Assembly (NCBI RefSeq): GCF_000179635.2 | Contig: NC_014824.1 | Coordinates: 270,001-302,000 of the forward strand | Length of the DNA stretch: 32,000 nt | Source: Ruminococcus albus 7 = DSM 20455 | GTDB taxonomy: Bacteria > Bacillota > Clostridia > Oscillospirales > Ruminococcaceae | Direction: 5' to 3' | In this document: in pieces, positions 4,395 to 31,844 of the stretch | How the letters are laid out: each line of letters begins with the position of its first letter | Position numbering within the stretch: the first letter of the stretch is position 1 | Notes under the pieces: model-generated | Databases searched by the model: none | Told to the model about the DNA's origin: nothing | Seen by the model: only the letters and a program-made list of their open reading frames with translations | Program-made: the position numbers and the translations under genes

Positions 4395-5094
4395 TACAAT
4401 CGTTTGCTCCGGGGGAAGTCACTCCCGAACGTGCTTTGCTTATCGGGCAGGAACTTTGCAAGGCACTTTTCAATGACAAGTATCAGTATGTGCTTGCCGT
4501 CCATTGCGACCATGAACATATCCACAATCACATCATCGTGAACAATGTGAACTTCTACACGGGCAAGACCTTTGAAACCGAGCATAATCAGGGCAAAATT
4601 CCCGACCGAGCGTGGAGCAAACTCCGCACGATTTCGGACGAACTATGCAGGAAACACGGACTTTCTATCATCGAAAATCCGCATCTTTCAAAGGGTAAAA
4701 GCCATTGGGAGTGGGAGCTTGACCAACAGAATTTGTCGTGGAAAGAACAGCTTAAACGAGCCATTGACGAGGTTATCAAGGTCAGTGAGGACTTTGAGGA
4801 TTTCCTTGCGAAATGTGCCGATTTCGGAATACTTGTGGACTACAATCCCGACCATAAAATCGACCTGAAATTTATGCTTGCCGAGCAGAAAGAACGCAAT
4901 TCGAGGGCGAAATTCACAAGAGCGAAAACGCCCGAACAGATTACGCACAGCAGAGTGCGGAGCGTAAAGCCCTGAAGAAAGAAGCGGACAGACTTTCAAG
5001 GCTTGCGCAGCAGAAGCGTGACAGTCAGAGAACGCTTGACCGATATATGCAGAACGAACAGGCTGCCAAGAGAAAGAAAGGTCAGCTTGAATAA
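4193..5094 (+). pseudogene. MobA/VirD2-family relaxase that is degraded: TTG start, internal deletion with frame change near ~4940-4960, and the extreme C-terminus retained in another frame up to 5094
   Basis: The relaxase core HCDHEHIHNHIIVNNV (histidine triad) is present. The ORF stops at 4975 after ~260 aa. The downstream frame encodes a ...KALKKEADRLSRLAQQKRDSQ... tail ending TAA at 5092-5094. Confidence 0.75.
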
Positions 5095-10421: not shown

Positions 10422-10440
10422 TCCTATCATCCGTATCACG

Positions 10441-10458
10441 TGTGTCACGCGTGACACA
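10441..10458. promoter_or_regulatory. 18-bp perfect palindrome TGTGTCACGCGTGACACA, copy 1 (candidate operator)
   Basis: The sequence is its own reverse complement. A second copy at 19472-19489 has about 50 nt of homologous downstream context. Confidence 0.5.
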
Positions 10459-10508
10459 AAATAAAAAATCACATTTTAACTATATAAAAATATTATTTGG
10501 ACGTTTCC

Positions 10509-10538
10509 TTGATTTTTTTTATCTACCTGTGCTATACT
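10509..10538 (+). promoter_or_regulatory. Strong sigma-A-type promoter with no ORF behind it
   Basis: TTGATT, an 18-nt spacer, then TGCTATACT (extended -10). Confidence 0.5.
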
Positions 10539-10803
10539 GTAGTCATAGAAGAGAGGAAGACTTCTCACAAGCAGATAACACTTGCTCCCTGCAGCAAAAA
10601 AGGCACCTCTTAGCGCCAAGAGGTTAACATGGCGTGAAAACTCCAGTTACCAATCATCGTTTTGCCTTTGTATAGCAAGCAACTCAAAAATGTTATTCTC
10701 CTTGTTATTCTGCTATCAGTAGGGTAGGGAACAGCCCCGAGCTCAGGCCTGTATTCATCAGGAAATCCGCAAAAGCGGATAAGTTCCATCGTTTATGTTC
10801 CTT

Positions 10804-10873
10804 TATGGTGATTCTTTGAATTTTTTCCTCCTGTTTTTTGGAATCTTCATTTTTTTATGGAGATTCTTTTTTT
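10804..10873 (+). repeat. Three direct repeats of the form T(A/T)TGG(N)GA(T)TCTT...T-run upstream of parM (candidate centromere or operator)
   Basis: The copies are TATGGTGATTCTTTGAATTTTTT (10804), TTTGGAATCTTCATTTTTTT (10838) and TATGGAGATTCTTTTTTT (10856). Confidence 0.3.
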
Positions 10874-10915
10874 ATCTGAATAAATTTTCTTATAAAATAA
10901 AGATGTCTAAAAAAT

Positions 10916-12804: not shown

Positions 12805-14040
12805 ATGGATAATTTCAAAATACCATCAGACACTCTGGATAGACTCAATGATTTTGCGGATCAGATAATGGATATGATCGACGGTTCTTATCCTTTCTTT
12901 ATAGTTTACGCTACCGAAAACATGAATAAGAAGACCAACTATAAGTATTTCTATTCTATACCATCGGAATTGGGCTATAAACTCTGCGATAACAAAATGA
13001 AAGACATTCTCGATCTCCATAACATTCCCCGCGATGGAACGCCATGCTCCGTCAAGGACTTTTCAATGCCGGATGATGAAAGGGAAAAGCTTAGAAATAT
13101 CGTAAACAGCTTTATGTTTTACTGCCAAAACGCTAGGATCCCATGCTTCATTCAGATCGCAGTAGAAAATAACGCAGAAAAGAACAGCACAGAGTACATT
13201 ATGGACATCGTATCACCGTACAGGCTGTTGATAAAGCTTAACAATGATAAGATCACAAAAGTTCTGAGATATACTATGGAGTCGAATATTTATCCATCAA
13301 GGCTGATGGACCTGAAGACTGATCTGCTTGACATTAGTGAGATGGTTAATGATGTAACTAAGCTGGATCATGATCAGGAAGAAATCTATCCGGATTCTAC
13401 CGAAACTGAATTTTCTGAGATCTACTCAGCGCCTGTCTATAATCCCGAAACGGCTGAATACGATGTTATAAGCGAAATTGTAATGGACAGCGCTGAAATA
13501 ATCGAATCTATGAACAATAAGGAAACAAAAGCAATTTCGGATAATAAGATCACTCCTGTTTCTGAGCCTGTCGAAGAAAAGCCAAAGAAAAAGAGAGGAA
13601 GAAAAAAGAAGTCAGAAACGGTTCTTACCTCGGATGTTCCAAATGTTTCAACCATAGAGAAAAAGGAAGAACCGGACGAACTTCCTAAGCCCAAAAAGAG
13701 AGGAAGAAAAAAGAAATCAGAAACAGTTCCTGTTCCTGAAGAAACATCTGTAATAAATGTAGAACACAAGGAAATCCCTGATGAGGCCCCTAAGCCCAAG
13801 AAAAGAGGAAGGAAAAAGAAGACGGAAATGAATGCTGTAATTGAAACACCGGCCGCAACAAGCGCCCCTCAGAAGAAAATAAAAACAAAAGAATATTCAA
13901 ATTTGGGAGAAATCATCACTCCTATAATGAAGTCCAGCAAGAGTAAAAAGAGATCGAACTCTGCTTTGTACGAAAAATATAAAGATATTCTTGAGAGATT
14001 CCCCGATGACTTCATAGATGGCGAATACGACGATGCGTAG
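12805..14040 (+). CDS. 411-aa protein with a duplicated N-terminal domain and three AT-hook-like PKPKKRGRKKK(S/T)E repeats
   Basis: A GGAGG RBS is present. There is an internal duplication (PFFIVYATENMNKKTNYKYFYSIPSELGYKLCDNKMKDIL versus PCFIQIAVENNAEKNSTEYIMDIVSPYRLLIKLNNDKITKVL). Three basic repeats are spaced ~36 aa apart. Confidence 0.75.
   Translation: MDNFKIPSDTLDRLNDFADQIMDMIDGSYPFFIVYATENMNKKTNYKYFYSIPSELGYKLCDNKMKDILDLHNIPRDGTPCSVKDFSMPDDEREKLRNIVNSFMFYCQNARIPCFIQIAVENNAEKNSTEYIMDIVSPYRLLIKLNNDKITKVLRYTMESNIYPSRLMDLKTDLLDISEMVNDVTKLDHDQEEIYPDSTETEFSEIYSAPVYNPETAEYDVISEIVMDSAEIIESMNNKETKAISDNKITPVSEPVEEKPKKKRGRKKKSETVLTSDVPNVSTIEKKEEPDELPKPKKRGRKKKSETVPVPEETSVINVEHKEIPDEAPKPKKRGRKKKTEMNAVIETPAATSAPQKKIKTKEYSNLGEIITPIMKSSKSKKRSNSALYEKYKDILERFPDDFIDGEYDDA
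13581..13827 (+). repeat. In-frame ~108-nt periodic repeat encoding the KKRGRKKK motifs
   Basis: Three copies of CC(T)AAGCCCAA(A/G)AA(A)AGAGGAAG(A/G)AAAAAGAA at 13581, 13684 and 13789. Confidence 0.7.
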
Positions 14041-14049
14041 AAGAAAAAA

Positions 14050-14080
14050 AGACCGATTGTGACAGTCGGTCTTTTTCTAT
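14050..14080 (+). terminator. Terminator of the parM operon
   Basis: AAAGACCGA-N9-TCGGTCTTT followed by T-rich sequence. Confidence 0.65.
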
Positions 14081-14210
14081 ATTATCTCAGTTCTATATCA
14101 TGTAGTGCAGCTTGTTCTGCACACTTGAAAACTCCGGAACTGGTAAAATCAGTTATATAAATTCAAGAAACGTATTTTTATCGATTCTAATTTTCTGTTA
14201 TAATATAATT

Positions 14211-14393
14211 GCTGATGAACATTTCCGATATTTAATTATTATCCGGAGTTCAATGTCCTTTGCCAAGGACAGAACCTTCGTGGAGAGCGAAGAAAAATAA
14301 TTCCTAATAGTGGAGTGTCTGTCGGAAATCATCAGCATCTCTTGGTTTTTGGAAGGAAAGTCGGATGAGCGCAGTTCGGCTTTCTTTTTTTTT
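14211..14393 (+). ncRNA. Candidate structured small RNA (~180 nt) with its own promoter and terminator
   Basis: An extended -10 TGTTATAAT lies at 14196-14204. A long-range closing helix pairs 14211-14228 with 14322-14336, and an inner helix pairs 14232-14239 with 14296-14302. Two hairpins lie inside: GTCCTT/AAGGAC and CTTCG/CGAAG. A 10-bp terminator stem with a T9 run spans 14356-14393. There is no credible ORF. Confidence 0.4.
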
Positions 14394-14483
14394 ATTTTTA
14401 GTAATTTTCTAATAATATATATATAGACTAAAAATTCGACTCTTTTTTAGAAAGGAGGGCAAGGCGGTTTATCGCCCTGCACA

Positions 14484-15575
14484 ATGAAAAAAATCAAACT
14501 ATTATCATTTATTTTATCAGCGTGTATGTTATCCGCATGCAGCAATGAAACCAAATTCGTTGACAAAGGGAAAAAACGCATAGTCGGTGAAAACGAAAGT
14601 ATTGCAGAAGTAATGGAAAAACCTGATAAAAAAACATTTAGCGATATCCCGATCATAAAAACCATATCTGAAAATAACTCAGGTCATTTTGAGGGAAATC
14701 TGACCGTTAATGCAAAAGATAACGATATAAATTATGATGTAACTCTTGATGTCAGTGAGGATAAAAACATAAAACTGGGAATACATTCCGAAGATACCGA
14801 GTTTTCTATTTTGTATTTCAATGATTCGATGGAATTATTTGTTATCAATCCTTCCGGAAATGAATACTTTATGGATACAAAGCGTATTATCCTCAACAAT
14901 TTTGCTTGTATAAAGGATCATATGTATCAGTATGCTATCTACGCAGCCAACAATAACGGTTTTTTCAGCTTTACTGAAGACAATAAGAGCATGATGTTAA
15001 ACTGCAATTCATCTACTGTGTTTTCTGCAATATGTGAAATATTTGATCAGGTGAACGAAAATTATTCGGAAGTATACAGGCTGACAAAAGAGGATAAGTC
15101 GTTTATGTCCTTTGCAAGAGAAATGTTTAATGATACTGAACACGAATTGTCGGAGGGATTATCCAAAAACGCTATGAATGATTTCACTGAAGCTTACTGC
15201 GTCATAGCACAGAGAAAGCTTTTATCAGAGACAGATAAACTCTTCTCTTTTACTCTGACTGTTAATGATGACCTGGATCTTGAATATGAAATGAGTGTGG
15301 TCGATGAAGAGAATAAGCCTCTTTACACAATAAAAGGTGATCTCGAAAAAACGGATAAAGCCACAGAAGTTATAGCCAGACCTAAAGACATAGATGATTA
15401 CAGAGAAAAAGAAGATGATTCCTCTCAGGTCGATATAAGAGCGGATAATGATGATATCGCTCCTCAGGATGAAGATACGAATCCCGAAGAGCCGGAAGAA
15501 TGGGAGGATAACAGCTTTTTTGAAGGCAAAACAGACGATTCGGACTGGATCTCTGATGACTTTTTTAAAAAATAA
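14484..15575 (+). CDS. Lipoprotein with an acidic C-terminal tail
   Basis: The signal peptide carries a lipobox (MKKIKLLSFILSACMLSAC|S). The SD AAAGGAGGG lies 24 nt upstream and is bridged to the ATG by a small hairpin. Confidence 0.75.
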   Translation: MKKIKLLSFILSACMLSACSNETKFVDKGKKRIVGENESIAEVMEKPDKKTFSDIPIIKTISENNSGHFEGNLTVNAKDNDINYDVTLDVSEDKNIKLGIHSEDTEFSILYFNDSMELFVINPSGNEYFMDTKRIILNNFACIKDHMYQYAIYAANNNGFFSFTEDNKSMMLNCNSSTVFSAICEIFDQVNENYSEVYRLTKEDKSFMSFAREMFNDTEHELSEGLSKNAMNDFTEAYCVIAQRKLLSETDKLFSFTLTVNDDLDLEYEMSVVDEENKPLYTIKGDLEKTDKATEVIARPKDIDDYREKEDDSSQVDIRADNDDIAPQDEDTNPEEPEEWEDNSFFEGKTDDSDWISDDFFKK

Positions 15576-15655: not shown

Positions 15656-16150
15656 GTGATATACAAAATTGATAAAAATTGTATATTATACTATCAGTAT
15701 ATAAAGGAGCTGGAAAGCAATTTTGCCTTTGAGGACAGAATACAGAAATTATGTAAGATCACGGGGAGAAGCCGTTCAGATCTTGCGATAAAGATCGAAT
15801 GTAATAGAAGAGCATTCCTTAACATCACATGGAAAGACGGAGAGCCTGTTGATTTTGATTTCTCAGGAATAAACATCAATGACCTTAATATTACTCCGAG
15901 AGAGTATCATGAAAGCAACATAAATAAATATTTGGATAAAAAAGTTGCGGCAAAGCTGAAAGCTCCATTGAATTATGAGTATTTTCTTATAAATACAGCA
16001 CTTTTTATTGAGCTTCCGGATCTAGCTGATGTAACTTTCAAATTCCGAGTTAATGGGCTTGAATTACTTAACGAACAGGAAGATATAGCCATAACCTATG
16101 CAAGAAATATGGTACAAAGTCTCATAGAAGATGTTTCTTACGTTTATTAA
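15656..16150 (+). CDS. 164-aa protein with a possible HTH, GTG start
   Basis: The segment RIQKLCKITGRSRSDLAIKIECNRRAF resembles an XRE-type HTH. The ORF is the only evidence for the start. Confidence 0.55.
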   Translation: MIYKIDKNCILYYQYIKELESNFAFEDRIQKLCKITGRSRSDLAIKIECNRRAFLNITWKDGEPVDFDFSGININDLNITPREYHESNINKYLDKKVAAKLKAPLNYEYFLINTALFIELPDLADVTFKFRVNGLELLNEQEDIAITYARNMVQSLIEDVSYVY

Positions 16151-16171: not shown

Positions 16172-17302
16172 ATGAATAAGAGCGATGTAACTAAGTTCAA
16201 AAAGTTTATCGACAACGACAACAACTTTTTTACAGTGAATAATGTTCTGACTGCTGTTATAAATAAAGACGTTGTATACTGTACTGAAAAAAGATCGTGG
16301 ATAAGCTATTCTCAGAGCGAACAGGAGGAGATAGTCTCTATAATCAAAAAAGTACTGACAGGAAAGATAGGCAAAGTTCTTACCGAATACGAATTCCCTA
16401 TAACCCCCGAGAAGAAAAATGTTTCTCAGGAACTACTGATGAATATGAAGATATCTCAGTTTGAAGATGATGATCTGAACGAGATCTTCATTAATAAGAT
16501 CAAAGACGGTGTGAAAACAGATGGTGCATACACCGTACTGTCTGTAAACTTTACGATCTCTGTATACGATAAAAATGCTGATCACTCAGATGAAGTATCT
16601 TTTGTTGTAACTGCTTTTTGTCCTATAAAGCTGAGGATCGACGGCTTTATTTATAACGACGAGTCCAATACCGTCGAAAAGAAAACATCAACAGACAGGA
16701 TCCTGGAACAGGCTTCTGACGGATTCATGTTCCCTACATTCACAGATAGGCAGGAAGATGTGAACCATGTAATGTATTTTTCTAAAAATGCCGGAAAGCC
16801 GAATGTCGGGATAATAGAAAATGTACTCGGCTGCAAGTATATAATGAGTTCTGAACAGCAGAAAACGCATTTCTGGGGTATGGTCGCCAATGTCCTGGGT
16901 GAAGACCTTAACTATGATATGATAGTAAATATAAATGAAAAGCTGTCAGATCTTGTACAGGCTTCCGAGGGACTAAAAGAGGCACGTGAAATAGACTGTG
17001 CAGACATACAGCATATTCTTGAAAAATGCGATGTACCGAAGGACAAGCTTGATGATTTTGGTAAGATCTATGATAAGGTGATGTCATCAAGGTATTCATC
17101 TTTTATTGCAGCAAACGTCTGTGATGAAAAAGTTAATATAAAATTCGGAAATTCCAGCCTGAAGATCGATTATAAAAAAGCAGCTACTGCCCTCGACGTT
17201 CAGATGGTAAACGGAAGGAAGTGCCTTGTATTTCCTCTTGATTCAGCCGAGATTTCTGTGCTTGGCATCGACACGAGCGTAAATCATTCTCTGAACGTTT
17301 AA
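16172..17302 (+). CDS. DUF4317-like protein (recognised from memory of the family pattern and not verified)
   Basis: A GGAGG RBS is present. Matching segments are ...IIKKVLTGKIGKVLTEYEFP..., ...FCPIKL... and ...GFMFPTFTDRQEDVNHVMYFSK.... Confidence 0.7.
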   Translation: MNKSDVTKFKKFIDNDNNFFTVNNVLTAVINKDVVYCTEKRSWISYSQSEQEEIVSIIKKVLTGKIGKVLTEYEFPITPEKKNVSQELLMNMKISQFEDDDLNEIFINKIKDGVKTDGAYTVLSVNFTISVYDKNADHSDEVSFVVTAFCPIKLRIDGFIYNDESNTVEKKTSTDRILEQASDGFMFPTFTDRQEDVNHVMYFSKNAGKPNVGIIENVLGCKYIMSSEQQKTHFWGMVANVLGEDLNYDMIVNINEKLSDLVQASEGLKEAREIDCADIQHILEKCDVPKDKLDDFGKIYDKVMSSRYSSFIAANVCDEKVNIKFGNSSLKIDYKKAATALDVQMVNGRKCLVFPLDSAEISVLGIDTSVNHSLNV

Positions 17303-17394: not shown

Positions 17395-19218
17395 ATGTCA
17401 AAATTTTGTCCGTCATGCGGAAAGCAGCTGAACGATACAGCAATGTTCTGTGAGCACTGCGGAACCAAGTTAAACACAGAAAGTACAGTTTCCGAAGAGG
17501 TAAGCCAGGTCTATATGCCGGCGACGGAAGAAAAAACCTATGAAAATGATGATGATAACAGCGCGGCTGCTATGCTGAGAAGCAGATCTTATGAGGAAAA
17601 GCCAAAAGAGAAAAAGCCTGTAAGAAGGAAGATAATTGCAGTACTTGCTTTTCTTGTGGTGTGCGCAGGCGGTGCTTTAGCTTATTTGCTTCTTAAAGAG
17701 CCCGAAAAGCCACTTAAGCCAAACCGGGAAGTTGTATCATCCAAAGCAGAAAAAACAGAATCTGAACCAGAAGTGTTGACCACATCGGATGAAGACAGCA
17801 AAGCGGATGATTCTTCTGAACCGGAGACAGAAGATAATGAATGGGAGATCAAAGCAGAAATCGAAGCTCCTGAGAAAGAACTTGATGTAACTACGGAAAC
17901 AGTTAATGATCATGAGATCAAAAAGTTTTCTACAGGCATCAAAGATTCGTATTATGACTTTGTAAACTACTATAAGGAACAGTACGGCAGTAATGCTTCT
18001 TATTCTCAGTTCAAAACCGAGGACGTTTATACAAGACAGTCGCAGCGAAAGAATTACACCGGTGTTAAAGATAATTACAACATAAACATCAATGCTAACA
18101 CCAGAGACGGAGAATCAGTCGTTCTTGCAAAGTCAAGCTTTAGTACGTACACGGCGTATTTTGACGGTGCATCGTCTTTCTATATGGAAATACACGACGA
18201 AGAAGGGGAGTCCGTTTCAACTTTTCAGACAGAATGCTATGATCACTTGAAGAACTTTATGGACGAAGATCTGGCTGAGTTTCTTGTATATGGCCAGGGT
18301 AAAGTCTATTACGGAGAAGAAGATAACAAAAACCTTGAATACGAGATGATCTTCTCCACACAGGACATAAAAATGAAGGCTAACAGAAATGTTGAGGTCG
18401 ATAAAAGACACGGCTTTAAGGCTGCGTTTGAAATCGGATTTGAACTTATGACTGATGAAGAAAGTCAGACTCCTTATTTTGACGGAAGCTCTCCCGAGGT
18501 GTATAATAATTCTTCAATAAAGATATCCGACTTTATCCCGGTTCTGAGTGATCCTTCTCAGACTGACTGCGGTTCTTCTCACGAATTCATGAAGAATGTA
18601 ATGTCAAACTTTACTATACCGGGTAAAAAGTTTATCGATACTAAGCTTGACAGCATGAATGTTACTGAAATGGTATCCGAGGACGATGGTTCAAAGACCA
18701 AAAACGCTTTTAAATTCAGAGTTTCAAGCGGTGTCAGCGGAATGAAGTATGAGGATGCTCCTTTCGTAGACTTCAATTTTGAAGCAGTCAAGGATGATAA
18801 ATCAAATTACTCGGAATGTAAGAGTGAGATATACGGAAATCTCAAAAACAGCAACAGGACAGATAAGAACGTCGAATCGATCATTTCTTTCCTTAAGGCT
18901 ATCTACCCGAATATTGCCGGTGCTAACATTCCGGCTGACAAAGCTGTTGAATCATTGAGAAAGAACCAGCCTTTTGAAATCGATGTTAAGATTGGCGCTG
19001 CATGGTCCAGCAACGTACCGGCTCATCTTGTTATATCCAATGAGGAAGGCACCTGCTTTACCTTGACTTTTGGTATAGAACAGCAGTCAGTAAATAAAGA
19101 AGATGACAGTAAAGATGAATCATCATCTATAGGCTTGGAAGAGGATATGCCTCAGGAAGCAAGTTCAAAAACTGATAATTCGTCAAAGGCTGACGATTTT
19201 GCCGCCGCACGCTCGTGA
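17395..19218 (+). CDS. Zinc-ribbon / single-pass membrane protein with a large extracytoplasmic domain. The C-terminus is probably altered by the IS insertion
   Basis: The N-terminus has CPSCG...CEHCG. A TM helix IIAVLAFLVVCAGGALAYLLL follows. The stop codon lies inside the left-end hairpin of the tnpB element. Confidence 0.75.
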   Translation: MSKFCPSCGKQLNDTAMFCEHCGTKLNTESTVSEEVSQVYMPATEEKTYENDDDNSAAAMLRSRSYEEKPKEKKPVRRKIIAVLAFLVVCAGGALAYLLLKEPEKPLKPNREVVSSKAEKTESEPEVLTTSDEDSKADDSSEPETEDNEWEIKAEIEAPEKELDVTTETVNDHEIKKFSTGIKDSYYDFVNYYKEQYGSNASYSQFKTEDVYTRQSQRKNYTGVKDNYNININANTRDGESVVLAKSSFSTYTAYFDGASSFYMEIHDEEGESVSTFQTECYDHLKNFMDEDLAEFLVYGQGKVYYGEEDNKNLEYEMIFSTQDIKMKANRNVEVDKRHGFKAAFEIGFELMTDEESQTPYFDGSSPEVYNNSSIKISDFIPVLSDPSQTDCGSSHEFMKNVMSNFTIPGKKFIDTKLDSMNVTEMVSEDDGSKTKNAFKFRVSSGVSGMKYEDAPFVDFNFEAVKDDKSNYSECKSEIYGNLKNSNRTDKNVESIISFLKAIYPNIAGANIPADKAVESLRKNQPFEIDVKIGAAWSSNVPAHLVISNEEGTCFTLTFGIEQQSVNKEDDSKDESSSIGLEEDMPQEASSKTDNSSKADDFAAARS

Positions 19219-19471: not shown

Positions 19472-19489
19472 TGTGTCACGCGTGACACA
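19472..19489. promoter_or_regulatory. 18-bp palindrome TGTGTCACGCGTGACACA, copy 2 (extends to 22 bp, 19470-19491)
   Basis: It is identical to 10441-10458 and sits ~55 nt upstream of the tnpB promoter -10. Confidence 0.5.
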
Positions 19490-19507
19490 AACACAGCAAA
19501 ACTTTTA

Positions 19508-19669: not shown

Positions 19670-20995
19670 ATGCAGATATATACGACATACAGCGTTAAGA
19701 TCAAGCATTACAACAACATCTTTAAAGATACCGTTATCGTATACAGACATGCTGTAGATTACCTTATCAGCGTTTGTCTGGATCATTGGGATAACATTGT
19801 TACATTCAAAGGGGTGAGTAGACTCACATATATTGAAACACTGATCCATGCTACAAAAGATAATCCCGATCCAATTTATGACTTTGACGCCAAATTCTAT
19901 AAAATGCCAAGCTATCTGCGTCGTGGTGCAATCAACGAGGCTATAGGCAAGGTATCATCTTACAAAACCAATCTCGATAACTGGATCAAAGATCCGGTCG
20001 GAAGAGAACCATCGTATCCAAAATCAGGTTATTCATTCCCGTCTATGTATCGTACAGTAATGTACAATCAGACCGGTGATTATACTGCCCGGATCAAAGT
20101 CTACATCCGTAATACATGGGACTGGATAACGATAAACTTTAAAAAGTCTGATATGGATTATATATACAGACATTGCAGTTTTCGCAAGCAATGCGCTCCA
20201 ACACTTCAAAAACGAAGCAAGGAGTGGTTTTTGGACTTTCCGTTTGAGGAAAAGGTCAAACTTGCAGATACATCTGTACACGAACAGACCATTGTTGCTG
20301 TAGACCTTGGGATCAACACCGCTGCTACGATTTCCGTAATGCGTTCAGATGGCACTATTCTTGGAAGGCATTTTTGTAAGCTTACCAAAGAAACAGACCA
20401 TCTGATGCATAGCATTAACCGTATAAAAAAAGCTCAGCAGCATGGTAACTATAAAACACCAAGGCTTTGGGCAAAAGCCAAAGGAATCAATCACGACATT
20501 GCCACTAAAACAGCTGCCTGCATCGTAGATATAGCCGTTCTTTATAATGCAGATGTTATTGTATTTGAGCATTTAGACAAGAACGGTAAGGTCCGCGGTT
20601 CTAAAAAGCAGAAGCTCAAGCTGTGGCGCAGTCAGGAAGTACAGTCTATTGTAACGAATAAAGCTCACAGACAAGGTATGAGAGTAAGCCATATCTGTGC
20701 ATGGAATACGTCACGCCTTGCCTACGATGGCAGTGGTTTTGTACTTCGTGGTAAATTCGGTGGTTTCAATACCTATGAGCTATGCAAATTTCAAAATGGC
20801 AAGACCTACAACTGTGATCTATCTGCTTCGTATAATATCGGGGCAAGATATTTCATACGTGAAACATTAAAATCCTTGGATGAGAATTCAAGGTTGCTCA
20901 TTGAGGCTAAAGTCCCTCAATGCAGTAAGAGAAGCACCTGCACGTTCTCTACCTTAGTTAACCTGAATGCGGAAATTATTGCTCAAACAGCATAA
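19670..20995 (+). CDS. tnpB: TnpB-family RNA-guided nuclease (IS605 OrfB-type) with a degenerate zinc finger
   Basis: The RuvC triad contexts are VAVDLGIN, VIVFEHLD and NCDLSASYNIGARYF. The canonical CxxC pairs are replaced (CAWNTSRLAYDGSG...LCKF...NCD). An AAGGAGGA RBS is present. Confidence 0.85.
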   Translation: MQIYTTYSVKIKHYNNIFKDTVIVYRHAVDYLISVCLDHWDNIVTFKGVSRLTYIETLIHATKDNPDPIYDFDAKFYKMPSYLRRGAINEAIGKVSSYKTNLDNWIKDPVGREPSYPKSGYSFPSMYRTVMYNQTGDYTARIKVYIRNTWDWITINFKKSDMDYIYRHCSFRKQCAPTLQKRSKEWFLDFPFEEKVKLADTSVHEQTIVAVDLGINTAATISVMRSDGTILGRHFCKLTKETDHLMHSINRIKKAQQHGNYKTPRLWAKAKGINHDIATKTAACIVDIAVLYNADVIVFEHLDKNGKVRGSKKQKLKLWRSQEVQSIVTNKAHRQGMRVSHICAWNTSRLAYDGSGFVLRGKFGGFNTYELCKFQNGKTYNCDLSASYNIGARYFIRETLKSLDENSRLLIEAKVPQCSKRSTCTFSTLVNLNAEIIAQTA

Positions 20996-21105
20996 TTTTC
21001 TGAGTTCAGGCTGTATGGTAGAAACGTAGTCCGCCTGCCTAAAGTGGGCGTGTCCGCTAGGACACTATAGGAAGCACGCGACTTTAGTCGTGTGAGGCTT
21101 CACAG
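20960..21105 (+). ncRNA. Candidate omega/reRNA scaffold spanning the tnpB 3' end and the right end
   Basis: This is the position expected for TnpB guide RNAs. Hairpins present are CAGGC/GCCTG (21007-21037), GTGTCC-GCTA-GGACAC (21050-21065) and CACGCGACT-TT-AGTCGTGTG (21075-21094). Confidence 0.35.
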
Positions 21106-21165
21106 TGATCCTTGGTTTGTGGTTAACAAGGACCAAAAGATGCTGCTTGATTATCTCCTTAATTA

Positions 21166-21190
21166 AAAAGCTCCTTACGGGGCTTTTTTT
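21166..21190 (+). terminator. Terminator that is probably the native terminator of the 17395 gene, displaced by the IS
   Basis: An AAGCTCC-TTAC-GGGGCTT stem followed by T8. Confidence 0.55.
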
Positions 21191-22791: not shown

Positions 22792-22864
22792 GTGCCATTA
22801 GCTCAGTCGGCAGAGCATTTGACTTTTAATCAAAGGGTCCGGAGTTCGAATCTCCGATGGCACA
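22792..22864 (+). tRNA. tRNA-Lys (anticodon UUU); CCA not encoded
   Basis: A manual cloverleaf fits: acceptor GTGCCAT/ATGGCAC, D arm GCTC/GAGC, anticodon stem TTTGA/TCAAA with loop CTTTTAA, and T arm CGGAG-TTCGAAT-CTCCG. Confidence 0.9.
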
Positions 22865-23273: not shown

Positions 23274-23328
23274 GCAGACGTTATACGGAATTTGTGAGTT
23301 CGAATCTCACCGTCTGCGCGTTTTTTTT
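23274..23328 (+). terminator. tRNA-like minihelix (7-bp acceptor stem plus T arm) followed by T8, acting as the hup terminator
   Basis: The layout is GCAGACG, 13 nt, GTGAG-TTCGAAT-CTCAC, CGTCTGC, G, then CGTTTTTTTT. There are no D or anticodon arms. Confidence 0.5.
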
Positions 23329-27637: not shown

Positions 27638-27706
27638 TTCATCTATAATATTTACAGAGTTTATTTGTTGATAACTGGAGTAATCAAATTTTTTGATTAA
27701 GATGAA
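27638..27706 (+). repeat. Module A imperfect hairpin (69 nt) with TATAAT in the 5' arm and apical AACTGGAGTA
   Basis: The outer stem pairs TTCATCT+TAAT with ATTA+AGATGAA, and the inner stem pairs ATTTG with CAAAT. The linear sequence is homologous to modules B-E. Confidence 0.5.
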
Positions 27707-28855: not shown

Positions 28856-28924
28856 GTTATAATACTATTAGATTCATTCTTTGATAATCGGAGTTATTAA
28901 AAATGGATCTAATTTAATTATAAC
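28856..28924 (+). repeat. Module B imperfect hairpin (69 nt), the best-paired copy
   Basis: The 5' arm is GTTATAAT-ACT-ATTAGAT-T-CATT-C-TTT and the 3' arm is AAA-A-AATG-G-ATCTAAT-TTA-ATTATAAC. About 21-22 of 26 positions pair. The apical stem is ATAA-TCGGAG-TTAT. The extended -10 TGTTATAAT lies in the 5' arm. Confidence 0.6.
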
Positions 28925-29348: not shown

Positions 29349-29417
29349 AATATAATAATTACAGAATTCATTTTGATGACTTGGAGTGTCAGAAAAAATT
29401 GAATTACTATTTATATT
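29349..29417 (+). repeat. Module C imperfect hairpin (69 nt)
   Basis: AATATAA...AATTCA-TTTT pairs with AAAAAATTGAATT...TTATATT. The apical sequence is GAC-TTGGAGT-GTC. Confidence 0.5.
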
Positions 29418-30566: not shown

Positions 30567-30631
30567 AATTATAATATTAACAGTATCAGTTTTTGGATAC
30601 TTGGAGTAAAAAAAGAGTTACTATAATAATT
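30567..30631 (+). repeat. Module D imperfect hairpin (65 nt)
   Basis: AATTATAATAT-TAAC...TTTTT pairs with AAAAA...GTTA-CTATAATAATT. The apical sequence is TAC-TTGGA-GTA. Confidence 0.45.
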
Positions 30632-31742: not shown

Positions 31743-31844
31743 GAAATTCTAGTATAATTCAGGTATAGGATTTAATTGATAAACTGGAGGTCAGACAAGT
31801 TGTTGAGATCAAATAATAAAGGTAAAAATCTATGACATAATTTC
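31743..31844 (+). repeat. Module E hairpin-like region (102 nt, expanded loop, weakest pairing)
   Basis: Its ends are GAAATT and AATTTC. It shares the linear motif TATAAT...TTGATAAACTGGAGGTCAG with modules A-D. Confidence 0.35.

Follow-up and report, generated by a model that had tools for sequence, protein, structure and literature searches.

RNA-G, a conserved structured RNA linked to a lipoprotein/DUF4317 gene module on plasmids of rumen Oscillospiraceae

Several bacterial RNAs are encoded beside their protein partner, among them Y RNA (with rsr), the omega-RNAs of TnpB and IscB, the non-coding RNAs of retrons (with a reverse transcriptase) and ToxI (with ToxN). Here we describe RNA-G, a conserved non-coding RNA of ~185 nucleotides (nt) at 14205–14393 on the plus strand of a 32,000-nt stretch of Ruminococcus albus 7 DNA (contig NC_014824.1, positions 270,001 to 302,000), which is referred to as the window. 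Like the RNAs named above, RNA-G has covarying stems, invariant loops and its own transcription signals, and it stays linked to one coding module through rearrangements; unlike them, it has no Ro, TnpB, reverse transcriptase or ToxN adjoining it.

Terminator-type riboswitches and attenuators of Firmicutes, such as c-di-GMP-I aptamers and PyrR leaders, share with RNA-G a promoter, a junction closed by a helix P1, a terminator and a conserved gene downstream. RNA-G differs from them in several respects: a mutually exclusive antiterminator was looked for and not found, P1 and the terminator are set apart by a spacer, the terminator has a promoter-like element behind it, and the distribution is narrow and confined to plasmids. 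Like the CsrB/RsmZ RNAs, RNA-G ends at a Rho-independent terminator and repeats an unpaired GGA motif, once within a hairpin loop. Those RNAs carry 7–22 such motifs, with A(N)GGA displayed in many loops, whereas RNA-G has two to three, namely two conserved GGAG motifs in junction strands and one GGNA loop; to our knowledge, no Csr sponge RNA has been described in Firmicutes. Finally, STAB-SD elements are 5'-proximal stabilisers resembling a Shine–Dalgarno (SD) sequence, at which ribosome binding blocks RNase J1 (PMC5737220). RNA-G likewise has an SD-like GGAG near the 5' end of the transcript, but it ends at a terminator, has no open reading frame (ORF) to protect and holds its GGAG inside a conserved three-way junction.

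RNA-G is a real, conserved structured RNA of the plus strand. Its sequence (14205–14393) folds with a minimum free energy of −62.7 kcal/mol (z = −4.59), a value that none of 200 dinucleotide shuffles equals, and the opposite strand folds more weakly (−43.2 kcal/mol, z = −3.2). Its three-way junction is closed by a long, interrupted P1 and carries the hairpins P3 and P4; a tail and the terminator follow. The elements are, in order:

14189–14204 (+), putative promoter, by sequence match: AATTTTCT motif, then extended −10 TGTTATAAT at 14196–14204
14210–14230 (+), P1 5' strand: P1a TGCTGATGA (14210–14218), ACA bulge, P1b TTTCCGATA (14222–14230); partner 14320–14337
14231–14254 (+), junction strand J1/3: conserved UA-N2-3-GGAG(A/U), with GGAG #1 at 14245–14248
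14255–14270 (+), hairpin P3: GTCCTT-TGCC-AAGGAC
14276–14292 (+), hairpin P4: CTTCG-TGGAGAG-CGAAG; stem invariant, loop YGGNAR(G)
14293–14319 (+), junction strand J4/1: A-rich, with a conserved RGGAG at its end (GGAG #3, 14312–14315)
14320–14337 (+), P1 3' strand: TGTCGGAAA and TCATCAGCA; partner 14210–14230
14338–14352 (+), pyrimidine-rich tail: TCTCTTGGTTTTTGG, single-stranded in predicted folds
14353–14393 (+), intrinsic terminator: stem of 13–16 bp, then T9; found by a terminator scan

An earlier note on this DNA, made from the letters alone, had described a self-contained, ORF-free structured unit with its own extended −10 and a strong terminator, and the sequence signals support that description. 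The strings it quoted all lie where it placed them or at most one base away; the extended −10 can be read directly, both hairpins are present, and the scan recovered the terminator stem with the T9 run ending at 14393.

Homologues of RNA-G were recovered by protein-guided look-ups and with one loop-anchored DNA pattern; there are 16 in five clades, all of them matched by the covariance model described below and all from ruminant-gut metagenomes or metagenome-assembled genomes (MAGs). The look-ups gave 11 distinct sequences in three clades, including one from an Oscillospiraceae MAG of goat omasum. Identity to the window is 97.5% for L002, a member of the window's clade, and ~84% and ~72% for the two other early clades. 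A covariance model trained on the two closest clades finds exactly one copy in the window (14205–14391). Distant homologues of the actin-like partition ATPase (ALP), which is encoded upstream of RNA-G, led to two more plasmid groups (L018–L020 and L021/L022), and the model matches in both (E = 2e-8 in L018, 3e-5 in L021); it finds no match in ALP plasmids without the gene module described below (L023–L025). An exact 48-mer scan of genome contigs gave zero matches, and viral contigs scanned with the flanking proteins and the loop-anchored pattern held no homologue. BLAST searches of PLSDB and phage sequences with the RNA, 10 kb of the window, the L018 version and the flanking proteins returned no RNA homologue; the only matches were distant DUF4317 genes. 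The family is so far found only on plasmids of fibre-degrading rumen Oscillospiraceae.

A decayed RNA-G fragment, ~95% identical to the window, is present at 4426–4601 of L010. It consists of the core only, with GGAG #3 mutated and without promoter, 5' P1 strand or terminator, and it sits in an unrelated context, with an AraC-family regulator gene on one side and a SIR2 gene on the other. In the Logan sequences L003–L006 (SRR4055034-46), independent identical assemblies start at 14223, 14385, 14404 and 14417 and run rightwards through the module; these breaks would mark transcript boundaries if the runs are RNA-seq.

Covariation was counted in a model-fitted alignment of four clades, with shuffled or slid pairing partners as controls. 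Standard pairs fill 93.8% of cells, compared with 76.2% for shuffled and 35–49% for slid partners. Both sides have changed in 26 pairs (17.8 ± 2.0 for shuffles; 0/500 shuffles reach 26), and the covariation score is 0.472 as against 0.191. In a matrix of all five clades, P1a, P1b, P3 and the terminator each pair completely when both strands come from one clade but not when they come from different clades; for P1, the own-clade comparisons on the diagonal score 8–9 of 9 and the cross-clade comparisons 1–5. Compensatory changes in P1 include one pair that occurs as U-A, U-G, C-G and G-C and another that occurs as C-G and U-A. P3 shows double changes in five of its six pairs (GUCCUU/AAGGAC, GUCCU/GGGAC, CGGCAU/AUGCCG and UUGG/CCAA), and the terminator, which is present in all clades, has changed on both sides in 13 of 14 pairs. 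The structure is specific to the plus strand, since the 60 cells that involve G·U raise pairing to 95.9% when read on that strand, compared with 83.4% when read on the minus strand.

The long-range pairing of 14211–14228 with 14322–14336 that the earlier note had proposed for P1 is present and covaries across the five clades, and the check on helix conservation and covariation that it had named came out positive for P1, P3 and the terminator. Its second long-range helix, between TTAATTATT and AATAATT (14232–14240 with 14296–14302), did not hold up: it can pair in the window, but clade 3 disrupts two to three of its pairs, and clades 4 and 5 lack it. Two further pairings were considered and dropped. 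Helix P5 (UUCC/GGAG), by which GGAG #3 would be sequestered, reaches just 80% pairing and was not kept as a family feature; GGAG #3 is able to pair with UUCC in some clades. For a pseudoknot that RNAalifold proposed, in which J1/3 (AUCYGGAG) pairs with the tail (CUCUUGGU), the result in the five clades is no better than with shuffled tails; both strands are invariant in clades 1–3, so that covariation is uninformative for this pairing within them.

P4 stands apart: its stem CUUCG/CGAAG does not vary between clades, in contrast to all other helices, which covary; its loops read UGGAGAG, UGGAAA and CGGGAA. The three GGAG motifs to which the earlier note had drawn attention are all present in the window (14245, 14282 and 14312), but only the two junction copies are conserved, the copy in the P4 loop being replaced by GGAA or GGGA. 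GGAG #1 in J1/3 (UA-N2-3-GGAG) and GGAG #3 at the end of J4/1 are kept in five of five clades, and in all five J4/1 consists of an A-rich, ARN-like run followed by GGAG. Enrichment of GGAG in RNA-G has P values of 0.002–0.024 in clades 1–3 and of 0.07 and 0.15 in clades 4 and 5. The tail sequence CUCUUGGUUUU is invariant in clades 1–3, and clades 4 and 5 carry UAUCCAUAUUC and UUCCAUCUU instead. Invariant unpaired segments together with covarying stems are typical of ribonucleoprotein or aptamer RNAs and not of small RNAs (sRNAs) that base-pair through a seed. Since RNA-G shows no variation in several unpaired segments or anywhere in the P4 stem but covariation in the other stems, we infer that RNA-G is recognised by a protein (or a ligand). 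A resemblance of CCGGAGUUCAAU to the T-arm of the tRNA at 22792 is limited to the window's own clade and was discarded.

No reading frame is conserved in RNA-G on either strand when the homologue clades are compared; the mechanical ORFs that overlap it, of 62 aa (+) and 46 aa (−), are not kept as frames. A mini-ORF or RNA-toxin reading, based on GGAG-N4-AUG in the window, was rejected because the start codon is missing from the other clades. There is no conserved small ORF on either strand of the kind expected for type I toxin–antitoxin or antisense control, and a promoter-like site on the minus strand of the region is not conserved in the alignment.

The earlier note had been unable to match the element to any riboswitch or T-box, and a scan with Rfam 15 agrees: no match reaches the gathering score over RNA-G in the window, L018 or L021, and at E ≤ 10 the region 14040–14500 returns terminator-driven noise only (5–22 bits, with thresholds of 40–200). 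ARAGORN finds no match on RNA-G. Retron and bridge-RNA readings were rejected, as no reverse transcriptase or IS110 gene is adjacent. RNA-G represents a new, well-supported family among the structured small RNAs or leaders of bacteria, without a catalogued relative and with a narrow, plasmid-bound distribution.

RNA-G is a fixed part of a module of four genes, for a lipoprotein, a protein of ~160 aa, a DUF4317 protein and a Zn-ribbon protein, on plasmids of rumen Oscillospiraceae (Ruminococcus-like). In the window, the module and the promoter candidate that precedes it are:

14403–14418 (+), candidate second promoter, for the lipoprotein gene, by consensus match: AATTTTCT-AA-TAATAT
14484–15575 (+), lipoprotein gene: true start at 14484, signal peptide MKKIKLLSFILSACMLSAC, lipobox read as LSAC
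15656–16150 (+), gene for a 164-aa module protein
16172–17302 (+), DUF4317 gene (Pfam)
17395–19218 (+), gene for a Zn-ribbon protein (Pfam)

In five clades and two arrangements, RNA-G lies 50–90 nt upstream of the lipoprotein gene and on the same strand. In the first arrangement the module follows the partition operon; in the second (L018–L020 and L021/L022) it is inverted and divergent from ALP, with RNA-G still upstream of the lipoprotein gene. Since plasmids with the inverted module keep RNA-G and ALP plasmids without the module lack it, RNA-G belongs to the lipoprotein/DUF4317 module and not to the partition genes. It represents the first functional handle on this uncharacterised module. 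A defence-system check of the module gave no match, single-sequence AlphaFold models of the DUF4317 and 164-aa proteins were uninformative (pLDDT 33 and 54), and we found no literature on 'DUF4317' or on non-coding RNA of Ruminococcus albus.

Two observations concern the start of the lipoprotein gene. A covarying hairpin at 14459–14480 lies between its SD sequence (AGGAGGG) and the start codon 27 nt downstream; it is conserved in clades 1–3 but not in clades 4–5, where the SD spacing is normal. In the goat-omasum Oscillospiraceae MAG (L009, 3560–4700), an IS1595-family transposase is situated between the RNA-G terminator with the candidate second promoter and the lipoprotein SD.

An extended −10 (TGnTATAAT or equivalent) is found 5–7 nt before P1 in every clade, and the equivalent of TTTTCT-N2-3-TAtAAT precedes RNA-G in five of five; with this spacing, transcription would start at the foot of P1. 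After the terminator, a −10-like hexamer in the plasmid's usual TTTCT-NN-TAtAAT form occupies the equivalent position in each of the five clades. Folds of truncated transcripts and duplex scans of the terminator arms against upstream sequence revealed no positionally conserved antiterminator in the five clades, and the spacer between P1 and the terminator stem measures 14–16 nt. The form (AA)TTTTCT-NN-TAtAAT recurs at 10883, 14189, 14403, 15610 and 17338, after terminators and upstream of plus-strand units (5 observed, 0.76 expected), and looks like a promoter class specific to the plasmid backbone.

Because the search for a conserved antiterminator was negative and every clade has a −10-like element behind the terminator, we tentatively favour RNA-G as a stand-alone, protein-bound small RNA over a cis-acting attenuator. 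The upstream promoter, the intrinsic terminator that defines its end and the lack of a conserved ORF are what the sequence of a stand-alone sRNA gene should show. RNA-G would be made as a discrete small RNA from its own extended −10 promoter and ended by the intrinsic terminator, and it would act bound to a protein from the module or from the host, either as RNA partner or as decoy. Recognition would probably take place at the invariant P4 hairpin together with the two junction GGAG motifs and the A-rich strand, and binding would adjust how strongly the neighbouring module is expressed or how active it is. With its P4 hairpin and junction GGAG motifs, RNA-G offers baits that can be used directly to find a binding partner.

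Several points weigh against a stand-alone RNA of this kind. The discrete species of ~185 nt is a prediction from sequence signals, and the alignment behind the covariation counts was fitted to the model and represents five lineages. The putative second promoter has no −35 and mostly lacks the TG; if it is not real, the lipoprotein gene would depend on read-through and RNA-G would be its leader. A position always directly upstream of one gene family, and on its strand, is what a cis-regulator classically shows. As to the protein partner, six-frame translations of the window contain no CsrA-like ORF, and none of the module proteins has an informative match in Pfam, NCBIfam, PHROG, PADLOC or PDB or stands out as a candidate RNA-binding protein.

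It is possible, though we consider it doubtful, that RNA-G is instead a cis-acting leader or attenuator. Transcription of the module would then start at the RNA-G promoter, and the junction would sense a small molecule or protein, possibly as feedback by a module product, and set the balance between termination and read-through at the terminator. This alternative, a form of which (a cis leader for the lipoprotein gene) the earlier note had also named, gains weight because RNA-G adjoins the lipoprotein gene in every clade and in both arrangements, always within 50–90 nt and co-oriented, and plasmids that lack the module lack RNA-G too. Its junction is aptamer-like, with invariant nucleotides, and a terminator comes after it; a covarying structured domain upstream of homologous genes is what is found for riboswitches, which are in use on these plasmids, as the c-di-GMP-I aptamer in L018 shows; the weakness of the downstream promoter candidate points the same way. 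Nevertheless, no alternative antiterminator pairing is conserved in position or in sequence, as the expression platform of a riboswitch would have, and the −10-like element after the terminator is present in all clades. The 14–16-nt spacer sets RNA-G apart from typical terminator-type riboswitches, and the distribution is very narrow for a metabolite sensor.

A base-pairing sRNA appears unlikely. The tail (CUCUU, UCCAU or UUCCAUCUU) would serve as an anti-SD seed that represses translation of a target mRNA, with the A-rich ARN-like strand and the U-tail as Hfq-type handles. The tail is indeed single-stranded in predicted folds and invariant in clades 1–3, J4/1 is A-rich and (ARN)n-like in every clade, and the terminator has a long U-tail; yet the tail sequence differs between clades 1–3 and clades 4–5, and many segments besides the tail are invariant. 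Target prediction with four conserved single-stranded segments against the window and the homologous loci gave no conserved target. The best predicted targets are not conserved, the site at the ribosome-binding site of the Zn-ribbon gene being lost in L014 and L015; a match to 21132–21145 is at chance level (E = 5.6), and pairing to the lipoprotein leader uses different RNA-G segments in each clade.

The remaining readings involve two other non-coding features of the window:

27644–27681, 28858–28894, 29351–29387, 30570–30607 and 31753–31790, cassette leaders; also L014 6305, L019 14513 (−) and L020 11020 (−)
10430–10880 (+), second conserved non-coding unit, with a ~120-nt core nearly invariant across clades; also L015 1630–2100 and L017 1735–2100

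The five leaders in 27.6–31.9 kb share TATAAT-N18-20-TTGATAAYYGGAGT (TTGAT(A/G)(A/C)YYGGAGT); given its fixed distance to the −10, the motif falls at roughly +13 to +27 in the transcript. Each leader precedes a small gene with its own terminator and promoter, including that for the N6/N4 DNA methylase. The surrounding hairpin is not conserved, so that the motif is a linear one, and as it recurs in the distant RNA-G-carrying plasmids L014 and L019/L020, it represents a real regulatory motif of this plasmid family. A role like that of STAB-SD elements is a plausible reading for these leaders. The earlier note had seen a resemblance between RNA-G and modules B and C of the 27–32 kb array; the strings exist, but the resemblance is at chance level. 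TGGAGTGTC has 6 matches where 4.2 are expected, blastn-short gives E = 0.36 and 22 for the shared strings, and the covariance model has zero matches in the array at E ≤ 10. Beyond chance, RNA-G and the leaders have only the short UA-N-GGAGU motif in common.

The unit at 10.6 kb contains a palindrome (TGTGTCACGCGTGACACA), a promoter (TTGATT-17-TGcTATACT) and a terminator at ~10838–10875. Its core holds ACTCCAGTTAYCAA (ACUCCAGUUAYCAA), the reverse complement of the leader motif TTGATAACTGGAGT, and the L017 version of the segment is a perfect 14-mer complement of that motif. All five leaders dock on the segment in the same register at −12 to −20 kcal/mol. The complementarity suggests that the unit is an antisense sRNA predicted to target the cassette leaders. 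Situated at the GC-skew minimum, it may also be part of the replication-origin region.

RNA-G could be one arm of a plasmid-wide post-transcriptional circuit in rumen Firmicutes, or alternatively an orphan riboswitch class controlling the DUF4317 module; even taken together, we regard these two as quite unlikely. In the circuit, a factor recognising UA-N-GGAG would bind both RNA-G and the TTGATAAYYGGAGT leaders of the methylase/anti-restriction-like cassettes and would work with the 10.6 kb antisense segment, RNA-G setting the concentration of free factor. If a partner of RNA-G also recognises the cassette GGAG leaders, the result would be an RNA-based regulon on Gram-positive megaplasmids.

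Very unlikely is the sponge that the earlier note had proposed, in which RNA-G titrates a factor that acts on the GGAG leaders of the 27–32 kb array, be it a protein or the ACUCCAGUUAYCAA segment of the 10.5–10.9 kb unit. The motif shared by the leaders at a fixed distance from TATAAT has a relative, UAUCYGGAGU, in J1/3 of RNA-G; its recurrence in distant RNA-G plasmids and its 14-nt perfect complement in the L017 version of the 10.6 kb segment also speak for this reading. RNA-G itself, however, pairs with the 10.6 kb segment at −11.8 kcal/mol, worse than the shuffled mean of −14.1, and since this pairing is at chance level a sponge would be possible only through a GGAG-binding protein. In addition, RNA-G shows no covariance-model homology to the leaders and shares only chance-level strings with them, just two of its GGAG motifs are conserved, and there is no CsrA-like gene in the window. 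That the region is not a functional RNA but a DNA-level site, a decayed gene or a chance structure is most improbable, because, despite the decayed core-only fragment in L010, the changes are compensatory and G·U-specific on one strand, the promoter and terminator are conserved, and no ORF is.

The window comes from a large, plasmid-like replicon carried by a rumen Firmicute. Its mobility genes encode resolvases, a MobA-type relaxase and NikA/MobC, and it also carries genes for the actin-like partition ATPase (ALP_N), dockerin proteins, HU, an ABC ATPase, the N6/N4 DNA methylase and a tRNA. The cumulative GC skew has its minimum at ~9–11 kb, where gene orientation flips. Upstream of RNA-G, the ALP operon consists of the genes for ALP, a 198-aa protein and a 411-aa protein (12805–14040). 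The last of these, which ends the operon, has three AT-hook-like KKRGRKKK(S/T)E repeats and may be a centromere-binding or nucleoid-associated partner of the partition system.

A TnpB/Cas12f-like gene occupies 19670–20995 (NCBIfam guided_TnpB, 70.8 bits, which is below the cutoff; PADLOC matches to Cas12f/Cas12u). The region 3' of it (20995–21190) is highly structured and GC-richer (z = −5.2) and is probably its omega-RNA. An omega-RNA reading of RNA-G was rejected, because the TnpB-like gene is 5 kb away with this structured 3' region of its own, in which the covariance model finds no similar scaffold. Hairpins of the GACTTTAGTC type flank the TnpB-like gene at 19.22 kb and 21.08 kb. The same 18-bp palindrome is found at 10438–10457 and 19474–19493, followed in both places by AAC(T)TTTAA-TATATAAAA and a promoter; it lies ahead of the 10.5 kb non-coding unit in the first place and of the TnpB-like gene in the second, and looks like a shared operator.

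The tRNA (22792–22864) has the anticodon loop CUUUUAA (UUU, Lys). About 430 bp downstream of it, at ~23285–23325, lies a fragment resembling a tRNA 3' end (GTGAGTTCGAATCTCACCGTCTGCGC and a T-run), possibly a former integration site. On the related plasmid L018, the c-di-GMP-I riboswitch (13019–13100, minus strand; 64.5 bits) is located upstream of the gene for a 953-aa LRR_5/Lipase_3 surface protein.

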